Shown: piece by piece, positions 4,899 through 10,531 of the stretch
Layout of the letters: every line of letters starts with the position of its first letter
Position numbering within the stretch: position 1 is the stretch's first letter
Assembly (NCBI GenBank): GCA_028278665.1
Contig: JAQAJI010000013.1
Location: 23,566-66,108 of the forward strand
Source of the DNA: Candidatus Rariloculus versatilis
GTDB taxonomy: Bacteria; Pseudomonadota; Gammaproteobacteria; Steroidobacterales; Rariloculaceae
Reading direction: 5' to 3'
DNA length: 42,543 nucleotides
The notes under the pieces: generated by a model
What the model was told of the DNA's origin: nothing
The model's input: only the letters and a program-made list of their open reading frames with translations
Databases searched by the model: none
Program-made: the position numbers and the translations under genes

Positions 4899-5135
4899 AT
4901 GAATACGATCCGGATACTTCTCGCGGTACTCGGCCTGAGCCTGGTCGCGCTCGTGACGATCGGCCAGGAAGCCGAGGGCGAGCCCGAGAGCCCGCCTTCG
5001 GCCGCCGAGGAGTCTGAGGCAGAGCCCACCGTGGAGCCTGCCGGGGACGCTCCGCGGGGCGCTTCCGATGAAGTGTTCATTCCGACCGTCGAGGTCCAGG
5101 CGGACGAGGAAGTCGTGTTTCCGGTGGACATCTAG
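4899..5135 (+). CDS. Small exported acidic protein ending ...VFPVDI (78 aa)
   Basis: Signal/anchor MNTIRILLAVLGLSLVALVTIG, E/P-rich linker and C-terminal EVFIPTVEVQADEEVVFPVDI. Purine-rich GAGGAAG upstream. Confidence 0.7.
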   Translation: MNTIRILLAVLGLSLVALVTIGQEAEGEPESPPSAAEESEAEPTVEPAGDAPRGASDEVFIPTVEVQADEEVVFPVDI

Positions 5136-5240: not shown

Positions 5241-6021
5241 ATGAGACGCACTTTTTTCGGCGAATTTCTCTTTCAGGCATTTGCGCTGATCGTCATGGTC
5301 ATTCTCGTGCATGCGTTCTACGTGACGAGTGTGCGGCCCAATGCGACGTCGATTCTCGAGGAGCAGGCGCTCAGGATTCAGCAGGAGGAGAACTACACGC
5401 CGGAACGCTCGTTCTGGGTGCTCATCAGGGACTTCGAACAGGAAGCCTGTTTCATCCTCATGTTCTGGGCGTTCGCGATCATGGGTTACAAGGCCGTCTT
5501 CATGTACAACGAGCGCACCTTGTTGCAGCGGGAGTTCCTGCCGGTGCCCGACGGCGTTCGAATACTTCCCGAAGACACGCGCGAGTACGGTCGCGCGATC
5601 GAGTCGCTGCCCGAACGGGTCAGGGCCATGCTGCTGCCCCGCGTGCTCTTGTCGTCGCTCGAGCGTTTCGGGTCGACGCGCAACGTTCAGGATGTGTCGT
5701 CGGTGGCGAATTCACTGTGCGAGGCCGAGGGCGAGCGGCTGGAATCGGAGTTGTCGATGATCCGCTACATCGCCTGGGCCATACCTTCTGTGGGGTTCAT
5801 ATGCACCGTACGGGTTATCGGTCAGGAGCTCGCCGAACCGCAGCGCGCCGTCGAAGGGGACAACCCGGGCGTAACCGACGTTCATAGCACTTCTGATCTC
5901 GATCGTCGTCATGTTCCTGGTCCACCAGTTGCAGTTGTTTCAGGAGCGTCTCGTGTTCGATACGCAGACCTACGTCGACCACAACCTCATACGCCACATG
6001 CGAAGCCGCGGCGCCACCTAG
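5241..6021 (+). CDS. MotA/TolQ/ExbB-family proton channel protein; frameshifted at ~5877 in this sequence
   Basis: N-terminal TMs and ELSMIRYIAWAIPSVGFIcTVR (ExbB/TolQ TM2 P-x-x-G-x-x-G-T motif). The C-terminal TM3/tail TFIALLISIVVMFLVHQLQLFQERLVFDTQTYVDHNLIRHM continues in the +1 frame from 5878 to TAG 6019-6021. Confidence 0.8.
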
Positions 6022-6035
6022 CCGAGCGAGGGGAG

Positions 6036-7436
6036 ATGCCTGCACGCGCGATCGAAATCAACGATGCCGGCCTTGTTGTTGCCGATGCGTCGGGCATCCT
6101 GGCCGTCGAGCCGGGCTACGCGCTGGTCGAGAAGGGCGCGATCACGACGGGATTGCAGGCATACGGGCAGGCGCGTCTGAAGCCGCGCCAGGTCAGCAAC
6201 AGCTTCTGGACAAATCTCAGTCTGGAGAAGGGCAGTGCGGGCGTTGAGGGCGTGCCCAACTCCGCGGAACTTGCCTACAAACAGCTTGGCGCCCTGTGGA
6301 GCAGGTTCGCCGCCTCGACCGACGACGTTGTGCTCATCGTGCCGGGCCATTACGGTCAGGCCCAGCTCGGACTGCTGCTCGGTCTCGCCGAGGAGTGCGC
6401 GGTACCGGTACGCGCCATGGTTGATGCTGCGGTCGCGGCAAGCCACCGGCCGTATCCGGGCCGCGAACTTGTCTACGTCGATGCGGGACTGCATCGGGTG
6501 TCCGTCACGGCGCTCGCGCAGGGAGACGACGTGAGCGTGCGGTCCGAACAGCGCCTGGACACCACCGGACTCGCCGGTCTCAATGACCTGCTTGCCCGGC
6601 GGGTCGCCGAGATGTTCGTGTTCGCGAGCCGCTTCGATCCGTTTCACGATGCCGCCAGCGAGCAGCTGCTCTATGACCGCTTGCCCGAATGGCTTGCGTC
6701 GCTGCACGAGCAGGGCTCGGCGGTGCTTGCGCTGCCGCACGGCGCCGATGAAGTCGAGGTTCAGATCGAGCGAGGACAACTGCTGAAGGTGGCGCTCGGC
6801 TTTTACAAGGCGCTGTTGCAGCTCATCGCACAAACGCGCGAGACCCGATCCGGACTGGTCGTGCAATTGTCCGACCGGTTGGCTCGCTTGCCTGGCGTCA
6901 TGGGCGAGTTGGCGCGCCTGGACGATTCGGAGGTGGTCGGTCTGCCGCCGGGCCACGCGGCCTGCGCCGCGCTCGAGGGCTTCGCTGCAATTGACACGCG
7001 CTCGGGCGTGAAGCTGCTCAGACGCATGTCCTGGCGCGCCGAGCCCGTGTCGGCCGTGGGATCCATGGCGGAAATCGCTGACACAGCGATCGTCGTGTCT
7101 GACACGCCCGTTCCGACCCACGTCGTCTATCGCGGCGTGGCTCATCCGATCGACGGGGCGGGTCTCGTGATCGGCCGGTCCGATGCCGAGGATCGGCAGG
7201 TCATCGTCGTGGACGATCAGCCCGGCGGCGTGTCCCGGTCGCACTGTGAACTCAGGCTCAGCAACGGCGAACTCAGGCTGCGCGACCTGTCCAGCTATGG
7301 TACTTTCGTGAACGAAAAGCGCGTCTCCGGAGAGGCAACGCTGCAGCCGGCGGACATCATCCGGATCGGCACTCCGGGCGCGGAGCTTCAGGTCGTAACG
7401 GTCAGGGCCCCGGAGCGGTCACATGGCACGCCGTAG
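6036..7436 (+). CDS. Degenerate Hsp70/actin-fold domain fused to C-terminal FHA domain (466 aa)
   Basis: Own RBS (GAGGGGAG) and ATG 6036. AIEINDAG / VVLIVPGHY / VRAMVDAAVAA / LVYVDAGLHRVSV parallel the Hsp70 NBD motifs. FHA: LVIGRS...GVSRSHCEL...LRDLSSYGTFVN. Confidence 0.75.
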   Translation: MPARAIEINDAGLVVADASGILAVEPGYALVEKGAITTGLQAYGQARLKPRQVSNSFWTNLSLEKGSAGVEGVPNSAELAYKQLGALWSRFAASTDDVVLIVPGHYGQAQLGLLLGLAEECAVPVRAMVDAAVAASHRPYPGRELVYVDAGLHRVSVTALAQGDDVSVRSEQRLDTTGLAGLNDLLARRVAEMFVFASRFDPFHDAASEQLLYDRLPEWLASLHEQGSAVLALPHGADEVEVQIERGQLLKVALGFYKALLQLIAQTRETRSGLVVQLSDRLARLPGVMGELARLDDSEVVGLPPGHAACAALEGFAAIDTRSGVKLLRRMSWRAEPVSAVGSMAEIADTAIVVSDTPVPTHVVYRGVAHPIDGAGLVIGRSDAEDRQVIVVDDQPGGVSRSHCELRLSNGELRLRDLSSYGTFVNEKRVSGEATLQPADIIRIGTPGAELQVVTVRAPERSHGTP

Positions 7437-8520
7437 GGAATTCAACGTCATTTCGATGTCGTTTCTCGACGCGATGACCTGCGGTTTCGGCGCCGTGATC
7501 CTGTTTTTCATGATCATCACGGCCAACATCGATCTGAGGCGCGATACCGTGCTCGACGATGTGGCCGCCGAGGTCGACCGCATGGAAATCAGGGTCGTGG
7601 CCGGCCGCAGGAACCTCGTGCAGATCAGGGAGGATCTCGCGCGCCTCCTCGAGGATCGGTTCACGACACGCGGCGTCAAGCAACAGATCATGGCGGAGAT
7701 CGAGACGACGCGAGAGGATCTGGTCACGCAGGCCGAAGCCGCCGACACGCGCGACGATCTCATCGAGCAACTGCGGGCGGATCTGGCGGCCCTGGAAGAG
7801 GAGACCGAGCAACTCGCGCTGACCGACGACACGGCCGAAGAGGCCGGCGCCTCGATCCGCAGCGTACAGGGTGAGGGTTACCGCCAGTACCTGACAGGGC
7901 TGCGCATGGGCGGCCAGCGGATCGTCATTCTCGTCGACGTCTCCGCGAGCATGCTCGACCGTACGCTCGTCAACATCATCCGGCGCCGCAACCTGCCTGA
8001 CGTGCAAAAGCGCCAGGCGCCGAAGTGGCAGCAACTCGTCAACACCGTGGACTGGCTCACGGCGCAGATTCCGCCGGGCACGCAGTTCCAGGTGATCGCG
8101 TTCAATGATGAAGCCTGGTCGCTCGTCGAAGGGACCGACGGGCAGTGGCTTACGGCCAGCGACGCAAGTCAGCTCGACGAAGCCGTGCGCCGGCTGCGCG
8201 AGGAGACGGTCGCCGAAGGCCCGACGAGCCTGCACTCGGCATTCCAGGCAGCCCGGCGCCTGGAACCCCGACCCGACAACATCTACCTGCTCGTCGACGG
8301 CCTGCCGACCATGGGCGGCGTCCAGCCGACCCGTAACGGCGTCACGAGCAGGGAGCGGCTCGGGCATTTCGAGCGGGCGTCGCGCGAGCGGCCGATCGGT
8401 ACTCCCGTCAACGTAATACTGCTGGCGATGGAAGGCGACCCGCTCGCAGCGCCCGCCTACTGGCAGCTCGCGCTCGAGAGCGGCGGCTCGATGATGGCAC
8501 CGGCGGAGGACTGGCCGTGA
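7423..8520 (+). CDS. ExbD/MotB-like TM + coiled coil + vWA domain protein (A)
   Basis: MARRREFNVISMSFLDAMTCGFGAVILFFMII (basic N-terminus, Asp in TM), heptad-rich stalk, MIDAS DVSAS ... GPT ... LLVDG. Confidence 0.85.
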   Translation: MARRREFNVISMSFLDAMTCGFGAVILFFMIITANIDLRRDTVLDDVAAEVDRMEIRVVAGRRNLVQIREDLARLLEDRFTTRGVKQQIMAEIETTREDLVTQAEAADTRDDLIEQLRADLAALEEETEQLALTDDTAEEAGASIRSVQGEGYRQYLTGLRMGGQRIVILVDVSASMLDRTLVNIIRRRNLPDVQKRQAPKWQQLVNTVDWLTAQIPPGTQFQVIAFNDEAWSLVEGTDGQWLTASDASQLDEAVRRLREETVAEGPTSLHSAFQAARRLEPRPDNIYLLVDGLPTMGGVQPTRNGVTSRERLGHFERASRERPIGTPVNVILLAMEGDPLAAPAYWQLALESGGSMMAPAEDWP

Positions 8521-9527
8521 GCAGGAAGAAACGCCGCGGCATAGAGACGCTGAGCCTGTCGTTCCTCGACAGCATTTCCTGTGGTTTCGGGGCGATCATC
8601 CTGCTGCTCGTGATCACGAAGCTCTTCGAGCCGATCCGGCTCGAGGAGAGCAATCAGGAACTGGAGGGACTGCTCGCACGTTACGAGCAGGAACTCACGG
8701 AGATACTCGGCGAGACCGAGACGGTGCAACGCGAACGCGTCACGACCGCCGAGACCGTCGAGGAAGATCAGGTCCAGGTCCTCGAGCTGCAGCAGGAACT
8801 CACGCGCATCCGTTCGATTCTGCTTGACCGCCAGGACGACGAGACGGTCGCTGACGAACTCGCCGGCCGGCTCGCGGCCGCCAAGCAGTCGCTGACCGAG
8901 GAGATGGAGCGCCTGCTCGCCAATCAGGTGCCCAATGTCGAGGACTACGCGATCGGCGGCGTCCCCGTCGACAGCGAGTACATCATCTTCATCATCGACA
9001 CCTCCGGCAGCATGCGCAGTTACGCCTGGGACCGGGTCCAGCGGCAGATCAGTGAAACGCTCGACGTGTATCCCACCGTCAAGGGCATGCAGATCATCAA
9101 CGACGAGGGGACGTATCTCTTCAGAAGCTATCGGGGCCAGTGGATACCGGATACGCCGGCCCGCCGACGGGCAATCATCGATTCCCTGCCGAACTGGAAC
9201 GCGTTTTCCGATTCGAGTCCGCGGGAGGGCATTCTCGAGGCGATCGACAGGTTCTACGATCCCGACAAGAAGATCTCGCTGTATGTGTACAGTGATGACT
9301 TCGCGCCAACATCGACGATTCGCCAGGTCGTGCGCGAAGTCGACCGGCGCAACAGGCTCGACGAGGATGGCAATCGCCGCGTCAGGATTCACGCGGTCGC
9401 CTTCCCGGTCTACTGGGACGTCATGGGCGACCTCGTCTCGTCCGCGCGCTACGCCACGCTCATGCGGGTGCTCTGCCAGCGCAACGGCGGAACCTTCGTG
9501 GCGCTGCCCTCGCGCCGCGACATCTGA
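8517..9527 (+). CDS. ExbD/MotB-like TM + coiled coil + vWA domain protein (B)
   Basis: GTGA overlap with the previous gene. LSLSFLDSISCGFGAIILLLVI, coiled-coil stalk, MIDAS DTSGS ... YSDDF. Confidence 0.85.
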   Translation: MSRKKRRGIETLSLSFLDSISCGFGAIILLLVITKLFEPIRLEESNQELEGLLARYEQELTEILGETETVQRERVTTAETVEEDQVQVLELQQELTRIRSILLDRQDDETVADELAGRLAAAKQSLTEEMERLLANQVPNVEDYAIGGVPVDSEYIIFIIDTSGSMRSYAWDRVQRQISETLDVYPTVKGMQIINDEGTYLFRSYRGQWIPDTPARRRAIIDSLPNWNAFSDSSPREGILEAIDRFYDPDKKISLYVYSDDFAPTSTIRQVVREVDRRNRLDEDGNRRVRIHAVAFPVYWDVMGDLVSSARYATLMRVLCQRNGGTFVALPSRRDI

Positions 9528-9790
9528 ACGCTCGCAGGCTCCGCCAGCCTGCAACCTGGGGCATCCGCCCGGCCGCCGGCAAGAACAGCCTGGATCGTTG
9601 CTGGAAGACGCCCGCGCCGGCGACAGCCGATCAACGCGCCTTGAACCGCGACTGAGCCGCGTTGCGCGTTTCCTGCCAGAATTGATCATCATTCGGGCAT
9701 CGTATGGTCCGGATTCGGCCCGGAATTGCCTTGCCGCGGCGCTCCAATGGCAGGTGTCAGAAGACAGCTGGACACACCAAGGAGCGAACC

Positions 9791-10531
9791 ATGACGAAAA
9801 ATATCCTGATACTGGCGTTGGCAGCCGGGCTTGCGAGCCCCGCCTGGACCGCCGAGAACAACGCAGCACCGAAGGAGGAGAGCATCGGCGTCGGCAGCGG
9901 CGTGGTAGTCGGCGCGCTCGCAGGCGGGCCGGTCGGCGCCATCGTTGGCGCTGCAATGGGCGGTTGGCTCGGCGACAGATTCCACCGCGAGCGCTCGGCA
10001 AAGCTTCAGTTCGAGCGCCAGTCCGAACAGGCCCGCCTCGAATGGGAGCGGGCGCAGCTCGAGGCCGATGAACTGCTGGCCAGGCTCGAGGAGAGCAACG
10101 CCGATCTCGGCCAGCTCAGGTCCGAGTGGCGTGCCGCGCAGGCTAACTACCGCAACGCGCTGCAGCAGGCGCTCGACACGCAGATCTACTTTCGCACCGG
10201 CGAGAGCGAACTCGAAGACGGAACCGGTGAACGCCTGGGCCGAATTGCCGGACTGATCGGCGAACTCGCCGATCTGACCGTCGTCGTCGAAGGCCATGCC
10301 GATGCGCGCGGCGCGGCGGACTACAACGAGCAGTTGTCGACTGCACGGGCACAGGCCGTTCGCGATGCCCTCGTGACGGCCGGTGTCTCGCCGGGCCGGA
10401 TCTTCTGGGTCGCCGAGGGCGAGCGTCATTCGACGGCCGACGAGAAGGACCTCGATGCCATGGCGCTCGACCGGCGCGTGAATCTGAGCATCGTGGAACG
10501 GAGCGCGGCGGACCGCATCGCGCAGCAGTAG
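9791..10531 (+). CDS. OmpA-family peptidoglycan-binding protein with glycine zipper (PdsO-like architecture)
   Basis: AAGGAG RBS, signal peptide, glycine zipper GVGSGVVVGALAGGPVGAIVGAAMGG, coiled coil and OmpA_C motifs EGHADARG..YNEQLSTARAQAV..DRRV. Confidence 0.85.
   Translation: MTKNILILALAAGLASPAWTAENNAAPKEESIGVGSGVVVGALAGGPVGAIVGAAMGGWLGDRFHRERSAKLQFERQSEQARLEWERAQLEADELLARLEESNADLGQLRSEWRAAQANYRNALQQALDTQIYFRTGESELEDGTGERLGRIAGLIGELADLTVVVEGHADARGAADYNEQLSTARAQAVRDALVTAGVSPGRIFWVAEGERHSTADEKDLDAMALDRRVNLSIVERSAADRIAQQ

Follow-up and report, generated by a model that had tools for sequence, protein, structure and literature searches.

Paired vWA-bearing membrane proteins as the probable two-chain axle of a MotA/TolQ-like motor in Candidatus Rariloculus versatilis

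Two overlapping genes of Candidatus Rariloculus versatilis encode membrane proteins that probably form a heterodimer, replacing MotB, ExbD or TolR as the two-chain axle inside a MotA/TolQ-like pentamer and carrying binding heads on a periplasmic stalk. The genes lie on the + strand of the 42,543-nucleotide stretch analysed here (hereafter the window) and encode vWA-1 (P0001, 7423-8520, 365 aa) and vWA-2 (P0002, 8517-9527, 336 aa), each with a trans-pore-type helix, a stalk and a vWA head. The evidence computed here comprises the domain order, conservation, gene linkage, the absence of ExbD/TolR and a predicted heterodimer. Ion-driven 5:2 motors power flagella, TonB-dependent uptake, the Tol-Pal system, gliding and type IX secretion, and, to our knowledge, the inner subunit of all of them ends in a peptidoglycan-binding or partner-binding domain. 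The class discussed here is predicted, on the basis of structural models, to place two integrin-type metal-dependent binding heads on the motor axle. The design itself has already been published as a computational prediction, that of a TPH-vWA class with an orphan TolQ-like motor (Mol Biol Evol 2025, PMC12204202).

The stop codon of vWA-1 overlaps the GTG start of vWA-2 (GTGA). In translation, P0001 begins with M-A-R-R-R, followed by S13-F-L-D16-A-M-T-C20-G-F-G-A24, and stays hydrophobic until about residue 33; P0002 has a K/R-rich N-terminus, followed by S15-F-L-D18-S-I-S-C22-G-F-G-A26. Both Asp codons are GAC (Asp16 of P0001 at 7468-7470, Asp18 of P0002 at 8568-8570), and neither translated helix contains His or S-H-L-S. 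By BLASTP the proteins share 23% identity over 246 columns (E 1e-9), strongest in the N-terminal helix, and on this comparison they are distant paralogues. The original prediction, made from the DNA letters, had described two paralogous subunits with a common layout (basic N-terminus, S-F-L-D-x-x-x-C-G-F-G-A helix with Asp16/Asp18, stalk, and vWA domain with D-x-S-x-S); the BLASTP match bears out the paralogy, and the translations together with AlphaFold2 and Foldseek bear out the layout. In line with it, the helices do not look like cleaved signal peptides: they run on into the stalk without a cleavage site and, unlike signal peptides, are strongly conserved.

AlphaFold2 modelled P0001 as a helix (residues 14-134) and an alpha/beta domain (166-365; pLDDT 77.9), and P0002 as two helices (16-104 and 109-135) and an alpha/beta domain (155-329; pLDDT 78.8). 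In Foldseek searches, the P0001 domain matched 337 chains at E <= 0.001, the best being the VWA domain of CLCA1 (6pyo, 5e-8), and the P0002 domain matched 229 chains at the same threshold, the best being ITIH1 (6fpy, 4.2e-7), followed by BatB (3ibs) and integrin I-domains. Pfam VWA_2, with its cut-off of 27 bits, is passed by P0001 (E 4.8e-8, 34 bits), and P0002 scores 17.6 bits, under the cut-off. Both C-terminal domains have the vWA fold in these models. The D-x-S-x-S motif reads D172-V-S-A-S176 in P0001 and D161-T-S-G-S165 in P0002. The MIDAS set of vWA-1 is complete (D172, S174, S176, T268 and D292, each invariant or at least 90% conserved), and the MIDAS-like set of vWA-2 has invariant D161, S163, S165 and D260, with S233 in the usual Thr position; judged from these residues, the heads are most likely metal-binding. 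At the C-terminus of vWA-1, W364-P365 is invariant.

The original prediction turned on the membrane Asp being conserved in homologues, and it is kept, in vWA-1 and vWA-2 alike, in 27 of the 27 related loci having the N-terminus. Among 104 representatives of 50%-identity clusters (those aligning from the N-terminus among the best 150 listed), F16 is found in 101, D18 in 103, C22 in all 104 and G25 in 103; one representative, P0265, has Ser in place of the Asp. Conservation of this order goes beyond chance. With 1,168 such clusters matching vWA-2 at E <= 0.001, the TPH-vWA-like class is large as well as strongly conserved. The Cys had been thought able to cross-link the pair, an idea that fails as a general feature because both paralogues have Ser instead in eight loci belonging to a single clade.

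The sequence models of ExbD, MotB_plug and TolR, including Pfam ExbD (PF02472) and MotB_plug, match neither P0001 nor P0002. When profiles are compared, the S-F-L-D motif falls on S-Y-A-D in a set of 26 MotB plug helices with the Asp residues aligned, at a weak P of 0.0027 (the known relatives MotB and ExbD give P 0.022 in the benchmark), and hhalign against the genome's own four ExbD proteins gives P 0.023. Since no family model matches, the evidence for kinship to MotB, ExbD and TolR is a weak profile score together with a shared motif some 20 residues long. We rejected MotB proper, because MotB_plug is unmatched, the C-terminal domain is vWA and not OmpA-like, and the OmpA-family protein of the cluster is a separate gene (9704-10531). 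ExbD or TolR proper was likewise rejected, PF02472 being unmatched over the helix and the periplasmic domain.

The candidate channel is encoded upstream of the pair by a MotA/TolQ/ExbB-like gene (5241-6021, + strand), which reads as two frames in the window (5241-5879 and 5875-6021), with a 26-base gap after 5875 adjoining eight substitutions at 5801-5865. The 26 missing bases are present in contigs of public runs X1, X8 and X9, and at the eight substituted positions the other letters stand in 4 of 4 runs; the break is apparent and is absent from the contigs of public runs. The window's broken copy reaches only 14.5 bits with Pfam MotA_ExbB (PF01618), and the intact form in locus L003 (P0246, 268 aa) matches the same model at 3.2e-14 (53.2 bits, cut-off 22.9). 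The channel protein apparently has four hydrophobic segments, as in MotA, by a count read off the alignment, and its two pore threonines, Thr189 and Thr222, do not vary across the 18 aligned rows, three of which are canonical TolQ/ExbB proteins of the same genome. A MotA-like gene accompanies the pair, as anticipated in the original prediction, and has no ExbD/TolR of its own. The order MotA-like, vWA-1, vWA-2 is kept in 24 of the 25 loci with upstream DNA. A profile of only four sequences (positive control 9e-62), searched against the 2,990 ORFs of the window and 26 loci (407,345 bases), gave no ExbD-like hit at E <= 1. On other contigs, the genome has four ExbD genes, each of which adjoins one of the four canonical MotA_ExbB genes.

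This linkage bears on an improbable alternative in which the N-terminal helices are plain membrane anchors and the two proteins are tethered periplasmic vWA binders like BatA/BatB, merely co-transcribed with a MotA-like channel that works alone or with other partners. The unmatched ExbD and MotB models would suit such anchors, as would the structural neighbours of the two heads, which in each case include BatB (3ibs) and an aerotolerance protein from Bacteroides (4jdu). So would locus L004, where the pair and all other partners are present and the MotA-like gene is missing; the sole MotA-like relative in that assembly sits elsewhere, with no vWA gene beside it. An anchor, however, needs neither an invariant Asp within the membrane nor the F-L-D...G-F-G motif, no other candidate for the inner subunit of the MotA-like channel turned up in the 26 loci and the window, and the gene order is constant down to 31-36% identity.

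That the two chains form a heterodimeric core, as the original prediction proposed, agrees with co-folding of P0001 and P0002, which scored 0.79, 0.77 and 0.79 in three runs versus 0.01 for the best of three controls; in the calibration sets, 116 of 157 solved complexes and 2 of 215 mismatched pairs scored as high. The runs share at least 63% of their contacts, with a partner pLDDT of at least 73. Residues 43-114 of chain 1 meet residues 42-116 of chain 2 in a heptad pattern shifted by two residues, the same offset as between Asp16 and Asp18. The heads also touch (333-364 with 290-332) through a contact that includes invariant, paralogue-specific C-terminal columns, and the interface listed from the co-fold contains no MIDAS residue. 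The paralogues are thus predicted by modelling to form a parallel, in-register heterodimer. Two alternative homodimer motors, in which the MotA-like protein would take up two copies of either vWA-1 or vWA-2, could claim the precedent of MotB, ExbD and TolR, which act as homodimers. We consider this quite improbable, because the two genes overlap and occur together in 27 of 28 loci (the remaining locus ends at a contig edge), because the heterodimer so far outscored its controls, and because the head-to-head contact falls on residues that are invariant within each paralogue. The Cys/Ser state of the membrane helix, which agrees between partners at each of the 26 loci where both N-termini are present (Cys/Cys in 18, Ser/Ser in 8, mixed in 0), also speaks against homodimers, although weakly, since the tree requires only one or two changes.

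For the heterodimeric axle, we infer the docking in the pore, the proton drive and the ligand of the heads. The short basic N-termini would remain cytoplasmic, and the Asp-bearing helices would lie side by side in the pore, following the AlphaFold3 5:2 model given in section 8 of PMC12204202, where an Asp pair faces a threonine ring. Proton binding and release at the Asp would drive rotation or a power stroke. The stalks, running in parallel, would wind into a coiled coil some 100 residues (about 15 nm) long that spans the periplasm, at the end of which the vWA heads would pack together via their conserved C-terminal regions, with the MIDAS face of each open to a ligand. The machine could then pull on, or sense, an outer-envelope complex, and the Ser/Thr kinase and FHA protein added in this lineage could serve as cytoplasmic control or output.

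The rest of the gene cluster, whose members within the window are all on the + strand, offers candidates for this ligand. A conserved lipoprotein gene lies just upstream of the window (G000:C28:22115-23293). P0005 (694-2385, start uncertain) is a membrane-anchored TPR-like protein with a hydrophobic segment and a weak TPR_2 match (E 2.6e-4), and in 23 of 25 loci a homologue is encoded upstream of the PEGA/FGE gene. The latter gene encodes the membrane protein P0004 (2367-4844), with four PEGA repeats (4.7e-45) and a C-terminal FGE-sulfatase domain (1.5e-37) in Pfam; its first 145 residues match no Pfam model, not even FHA. FGE catalysis requires two Cys, and residues 560-825 of P0004 contain no cysteine; with both active-site cysteines absent, the domain is therefore not a catalytic formylglycine-generating enzyme, and we rejected that assignment. 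Going by sequence, the lipoprotein, the TPR-like protein and the cysteine-free PEGA/FGE-sulfatase protein are conserved companions of the motor, and our best guess is that the non-catalytic FGE-sulfatase/PEGA protein, together with the lipoprotein and the TPR-like protein, is the ligand of the heads.

Other members of the cluster are more restricted. The Ser/Thr protein kinase (2-883, 5' end cut by the window start; Pfam Pkinase E 6.5e-27), which lies between the lipoprotein gene and the TPR-like gene, is found in the close relatives L001-L005 only. A strongly acidic secreted small protein (4899-5135, 78 aa, C-terminus F-P-V-D-I in translation) has no Pfam match and has homologues in L001-L006 only, with an identical C-terminus in L004. 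The FHA protein (6036-7436) consists of a region of about 360 aa and a C-terminal FHA domain (Pfam 2.7e-14, residues 378-445); its matches among PDB sequences are to FHA alone, and those in the Atlas are to 'hypothetical' clusters only. It is present in only part of the gammaproteobacterial loci, and the homologues from L046 and L047 lack an FHA match. The OmpA-family peptidoglycan-binding protein encoded at 9704-10531 (Pfam OmpA 3.2e-18, DUF456, Gly-zipper), which has a glycine-zipper membrane segment, is lineage-specific, with homologues in L001-L005 only; L009 has a PG_binding_1+SH3 protein in its place.

Zorya contains a MotAB-like 5:2 unit, and by this precedent the cluster could be a Zorya-type anti-phage or conflict system, in which a MotAB-like sensor of envelope damage triggers an effector. 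The conflict systems covered in the accessible part of PMC7159879 repeatedly contain vWA, FHA, kinase and FGE-type domains, but we consider this reading very improbable, as PADLOC matches none of six proteins, the core has no conserved nuclease or other effector gene next to it, and the cluster is single-copy, fixed in order and 60-70% identical across many uncultured Gammaproteobacteria and persists in another class, in genomes of 2-3 Mb. With such a distribution, a housekeeping role in the envelope is more plausible than a mobile defence island.

Compared with known systems, the motor resembles the MotB/ExbD type in its MotA_ExbB channel with two conserved pore threonines and in inner subunits that have a short basic cytoplasmic N-terminus, a single helix and a buried Asp. 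It differs in having two different chains in place of a homodimer and, in the periplasm, a vWA domain carried on a coiled coil of about 100 residues instead of an OmpA-like or ExbD-type domain. The gliding motor Agl-Glt of Myxococcus reportedly combines the TolQ-like AglR with two different TolR-like chains, AglQ and AglS, and the vWA adhesin CglB is said to take part in its force coupling. A TolQ-like channel, two unlike inner chains and a vWA domain in the machine are thus common to both, but in Agl-Glt, where AglQ and AglS are of the ordinary TolR-like kind, the vWA domain belongs to a separate lipoprotein of the outer membrane, whereas here it is fused to the axle. GldL-GldM/PorL-PorM of type IX secretion is a MotA-like 5:2 motor with a two-chain inner subunit, whose long periplasmic shaft points to an outer ring containing the FGE-sulfatase-fold protein GldK/PorK. 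P0004 has GldK/PorK as its best NCBIfam match (2.1e-28), although at 99.8 bits against a cut-off of 350; GldM, GldN and T9SS genes did not appear in the cluster, and the shaft here, unlike that of GldM/PorM, is a coiled coil with vWA heads.

A further comparison comes from the H1-T6SS sensor of P. aeruginosa, described in the available text of PMC13713981 and PMC3224232 as an outer-membrane lipoprotein (TagQ), a non-enzymatic FGE-sulfatase-type protein (TagR) and the periplasmic vWA domain of PpkA, with a Ser/Thr kinase passing the output on to an FHA protein. All five kinds of parts are also present in the window's cluster. In the module so described, however, kinase and vWA domain belong to one protein and there is no MotA-like motor, whereas here the vWA domains sit on the motor axle and the kinase is a separate, lineage-specific addition. 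The likeness, which lies in the kinds of parts and not in lipoprotein homology, may serve as a lead to the ligand of the vWA heads. By this analogy, it is possible, if doubtful, that the motor serves as the powered arm of a sensor of envelope integrity: the paired heads, about 15 nm out on a coiled coil that rotates or pulls, would grip the cysteine-free FGE-sulfatase domain of P0004 and the lipoprotein, as proposed for PpkA vWA meeting TagR-TagQ; proton-driven tension would report or repair the link between the inner membrane and the outer envelope; and the signal would pass to the Ser/Thr kinase and FHA protein in the sponge-associated lineage. If so, it would be a mechanically probed envelope checkpoint and not a transporter, a flagellum or a variant of Tol-Pal.

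The closest counterpart is the TPH-vWA class, whose described features the window's pair matches. According to the accessible parts of PMC12204202, that class occurs mainly in Proteobacteria, with Idiomarina as the seed, and the shared features are a vWA domain tethered by one membrane helix with a conserved Asp and no SHLS/His motif, unlike gene pairs tightly beside a tolQ-like gene with no tolR/exbD nearby, and a threonine ring in the tolQ-like protein. The pair is therefore a further example of an already predicted design, and nothing found here contradicts those parts of the paper. The same text makes no mention of the lipoprotein, TPR-like and PEGA/FGE-sulfatase partners, the kinase and FHA additions or the head-to-head contact. 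What this window contributes is a list of partners as candidate ligands (the lipoprotein, the TPR-like protein and the non-catalytic PEGA/FGE protein), a modelled and predictedly obligate heterodimer with a defined head-to-head interface and, by analogy, TagQ-TagR-PpkA as a precedent for the meeting of a vWA domain, an FGE-type domain and a lipoprotein.

Two forward-strand genes whose open reading frames (ORFs) overlap by four bases (GTGA) encode, on translation, the proteins vWA-1 (P0001; 365 aa, 7423–8520) and vWA-2 (P0002; 336 aa, 8517–9527). Both proteins start with a basic stretch, and each carries within a hydrophobic run the same kind of motif, S13-F-L-D16-A-M-T-C20-G-F-G-A in vWA-1 and S15-F-L-D18-S-I-S-C22-G-F-G-A in vWA-2, in which Asp16 (7468–7470) and Asp18 (8568–8570) are both encoded by GAC. 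BLASTP aligns the two across 246 columns with 23% of residues identical (E 1e-9), best in the helix. Pfam VWA_2 was matched above its cut-off by vWA-1 (E 4.8e-8) and below it by vWA-2 (17.6 bits vs a cut-off of 27), and both proteins were therefore folded, using alignments of 27 and 26 homologues, respectively. The vWA-1 model comprises a helix (residues 14–134), an ill-defined linker and an alpha/beta domain (166–365), with a mean pLDDT of 77.9; the vWA-2 model comprises helices at 16–104 and 109–135 and a domain at 155–329 (pLDDT 78.8). In Foldseek searches of the PDB, both heads matched vWA domains: 337 chains at E <= 0.001 for vWA-1, led by the CLCA1 VWA domain, BatB and 4fx5, and 229 chains for vWA-2, led by ITIH1, BatB and integrin I-domains. 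The domain order is thereby established computationally, and the feature at 7423–9527 is real: translations, BLASTP, models and Foldseek bear out every detail of the original prediction, which had described two paralogues with a basic start, an S-F-L-D-x-x-x-C-G-F-G-A helix, a stalk and a vWA head. As a side observation, the helix and stalk of vWA-2 (residues 3–137) weakly resemble HpsJ-like cyanobacterial proteins in NCBIfam (E 5.9e-4, far under the cut-off).

The family to which the pair belongs is very large. Among 8,000 scored candidates for each protein, 5,367 matched vWA-1 and all 8,000 matched vWA-2 at E <= 0.001, their names being solely 'VWA domain-containing protein' or 'hypothetical'; counted as representatives of 50%-identity clusters, 1,168 match vWA-2 at E <= 0.001, of which 683 also pass 1e-10 and 277 pass 1e-30. 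Related loci (n = 28) were collected from named assemblies (10) and by sampling 400 other genomes of the phylum, 18 of which gave a match (15 from one family of another class and three from the window's own class). Fusions of the two genes were sought among longer proteins sharing residues 1–60; of 14 candidates scored, the two found (P0248 and P0249; 699 and 703 aa) have out-of-frame stretches between their halves and were rejected as read-through artefacts. The Acidobacteriota label of one of these two suggests that the family may be more widely distributed. Four further proteins of 736–762 aa (P0323, P0324, P0344 and P0373) have a vWA-2-like head (~50% identity) at the C-terminus only, and may be other head architectures or further artefacts.

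The membrane Asp, whose conservation the original prediction had made a point to check, is kept in 27/27 loci for each paralogue wherever the N-terminus lies on the contig. Among the best 150 of the 1,168 vWA-2 representatives, 104 align from the N-terminus; Asp18 is kept in 103 of them, the single exception being a Ser (in P0265), and the helix Cys in all 104. Across the loci, this Cys is present in both paralogues in 18 cases and replaced by Ser in both in eight, all of one clade, with no mixed pairs. On a tree of 19 paired rows the switch needs just one or two changes, and the matching is thus a weak sign of coupling. With Ser in both helices of one clade, the cross-link that the original prediction had suggested for the shared Cys cannot be a general feature. 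In the heads, the MIDAS residues of vWA-1 comprise the invariant D172, S174, S176 and D292 together with T268 (at least 90% conserved), and D161, S163, S165, S233 and D260 of vWA-2 are all invariant, with Ser at the usual Thr position. The C-terminal W-P of vWA-1 (8509–8517, residues 363–365) is invariant in 27/27 rows.

Structure prediction of the full-length pair with alignments supported the proposed paralogue heterodimer, giving co-fold scores of 0.79, 0.77 and 0.79 vs 0.01 for the best of three controls; the heterodimer score mark is reached by 116/157 solved complexes vs 2/215 mismatched pairs, a calibration that is approximate because custom alignments went into the co-fold. The runs share at least 63% of their contacts, with a partner pLDDT of at least 73. 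Confident contacts between vWA-1 residues 43–114 and vWA-2 residues 42–116 follow a heptad rhythm, and the stalks are accordingly modelled as a parallel coiled coil with a two-residue offset that matches the offset of Asp16 and Asp18. The heads are also predicted to touch, through vWA-1 residues 333–364 and vWA-2 residues 290–332. Both segments contain paralogue-specific invariant columns (E337-G-D339, A342, W347, G355, P360 and W364-P365 in vWA-1; M316, N323, G325 and L330 in vWA-2), and the W-P tail lies within this head-to-head contact. None of the MIDAS residues is among the listed interface residues of the predicted dimer.

Neither protein matched the ExbD, MotB_plug or TolR models of Pfam and NCBIfam, and likeness to the helices of known stator-type subunits was assessed with a profile of 53 N-termini. 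Compared with 26 MotB plug helices from genomes of the same class, this profile places S-F-L-D onto S-Y-A-D, Asp on Asp (P 0.0027); compared with the genome's own four ExbD proteins, it gives P 0.023. MotB and ExbD are known relatives, and the same test gives P 0.022 between them. The likeness of the vWA helix to stator plugs is thus on par with that between accepted relatives, over a segment too short to prove homology.

Gene context argues more strongly for a stator-type role than helix likeness does. The order MotA-like gene, vWA-1, vWA-2 is found in 24/25 loci having upstream DNA. A search of 26 loci and the window with a profile built from only four sequences yielded no ExbD-like ORF at E <= 1 (control 9e-62). 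The genome's four ExbD genes are each paired with a neighbouring canonical MotA_ExbB gene, of which there are also four (contigs C68, C73 and C95), and MotB_plug has no match in this genome.

The MotA/TolQ/ExbB-like gene (5241–6021, forward strand) is split into two frames in translation. Its relative in locus L003, 97% identical, is an intact gene of 268 aa (P0246; Pfam MotA_ExbB, 3.2e-14), and comparison with it reveals a 26-base gap after 5875 of the window and eight substitutions between 5801 and 5865, all of them transversions altering conserved residues. The 122-contig MAG from which the window comes has the gene in this broken form too. Contigs of four public runs (X1, X2, X8 and X9) were compared over 5241–6500: the 26 bases are present in X1, X8 and X9 and appear as a loose end in X2, and the eight alternative letters occur in all four runs. 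X1, otherwise identical to the window across 5241–5758, may be its source sample; public runs with this stretch are mostly labelled sponge metagenome. Since these contigs carry the intact form, the break is most likely an artefact of assembly or consensus calling, in a stretch common to several co-occurring organisms; a real pseudogene was dropped as the leading reading on the same evidence, and private inactivation keeps a lesser share of the probability. In 15 MotA-like proteins and three canonical TolQ/ExbB proteins of the same genome, P182, G185, G188, T189, V190, G192, A218 and T222 are invariant; T189 and T222 coincide with the two TolQ/ExbB pore threonines.

In the most likely reading, which we hold to be probable, vWA-1 and vWA-2 would stand in for MotB/ExbD/TolR in an ion-driven 5:2 unit, that is, five channel subunits around two inner-subunit chains. 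The helices would dock in the pore of the MotA-like channel and protons would drive the unit. Apart from the Cys cross-link, the motor with a heterodimeric, vWA-headed inner subunit that was originally proposed is supported overall.

The wider cluster, all on the forward strand, begins with a Ser/Thr kinase (2–883), a membrane-anchored TPR-like protein and P0004 (2367–4844), in which Pfam finds four PEGA repeats and an FGE-sulfatase-type domain. Fourth is a small acidic secreted protein (4899–5135; 78 aa, ending F-P-V-D-I), fifth the MotA-like gene and sixth a protein with a C-terminal FHA domain in Pfam (6036–7436); vWA-1 and vWA-2 are seventh and eighth, followed by an OmpA-family protein with a glycine zipper (9704–10531). 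The mechanism of the formylglycine-generating enzyme requires cysteine; the FGE-sulfatase-type domain of P0004 has none, and P0004 is therefore not a catalytic enzyme of this kind. An FHA domain suspected by eye at the N-terminus of P0004 had no Pfam match even at E <= 10. An 'Hsp70-like' label for the 6036–7436 protein was likewise discarded, as Pfam shows the C-terminal FHA domain only, PDB sequence matches cover FHA only and its Atlas clusters are 'hypothetical'. A defence system was rejected on zero PADLOC matches among six proteins.

Upstream of the motor genes, 23/25 loci have the TPR-like and PEGA/FGE genes, the contigs of the remaining two stopping within 1.7 kb. Immediately upstream of the TPR-like gene, 11/13 loci examined have a lipoprotein of ~410–450 aa with no Pfam match; that of the window's genome (G000:C28:22115–23293; lipobox L-S-A-C) lies shortly before the window begins and is separated from the TPR-like gene by the inserted kinase. 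A hydrophobic, glycine-rich stretch lies close to the C-terminal third of the conserved lipoprotein (also L062:1492–2829), whose Atlas clusters are named only 'Lipoprotein family protein'. The kinase, FHA, small acidic and OmpA proteins do not extend beyond the lineage of the window or a subset of Gammaproteobacteria, the small acidic one being kept in L001–L006. Locus L004, 62% identical, has every cluster partner except the MotA-like gene: there the FHA gene comes after that of the small secreted protein with no channel gene in the interval (L004:6300–6620). That assembly has a single MotA-like relative (L066, 46% identity), at a different place and with no vWA gene closer than 1.5 kb. Genes downstream of vWA-2 differ between loci, an M48 peptidase occurring in L046, L047, L007 and L009. 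In L009 (10142–11119), a PG_binding_1 and SH3 protein follows vWA-2; a peptidoglycan-binding protein thus comes after vWA-2 in two lineages, built on OmpA plus a glycine zipper in the one and on PG_binding_1 plus SH3 in the other.

As ligands of the vWA heads, the conserved periplasmic cluster partners are favoured by analogy; speculatively, the small acidic protein with its F-P-V-D-I end could be a MIDAS ligand. The analogy is with TagQ-TagR-PpkA, the H1-T6SS sensor of Pseudomonas aeruginosa. By description, the window's cluster has the same five kinds of parts: a lipoprotein, a non-enzymatic FGE-type domain, a vWA domain, a Ser/Thr kinase and an FHA protein. The periplasmic domain of PpkA is a vWA domain (PMC3224232).

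A further comparison is offered by the TPH-vWA class, a computational prediction for which a full-text literature search returned no paper besides PMC12204202. That source describes membrane-tethered vWA proteins that tightly co-occur with tolQ homologues, lack syntenic tolR/exbD genes and the SHLS motif, have a trans-pore helix like that of TolR/ExbD with a conserved Asp, and mostly form unlike pairs; its AlphaFold3 models place the Asp pair within a threonine ring, and it names Idiomarina as seed. The window pair shows every one of these features that was compared, by description rather than by seed sequences, and on its sequence features is best regarded as a further member of this predicted class. 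The interest of the pair accordingly lies in its function and partner list, rather than in the design itself, which that source had already predicted.
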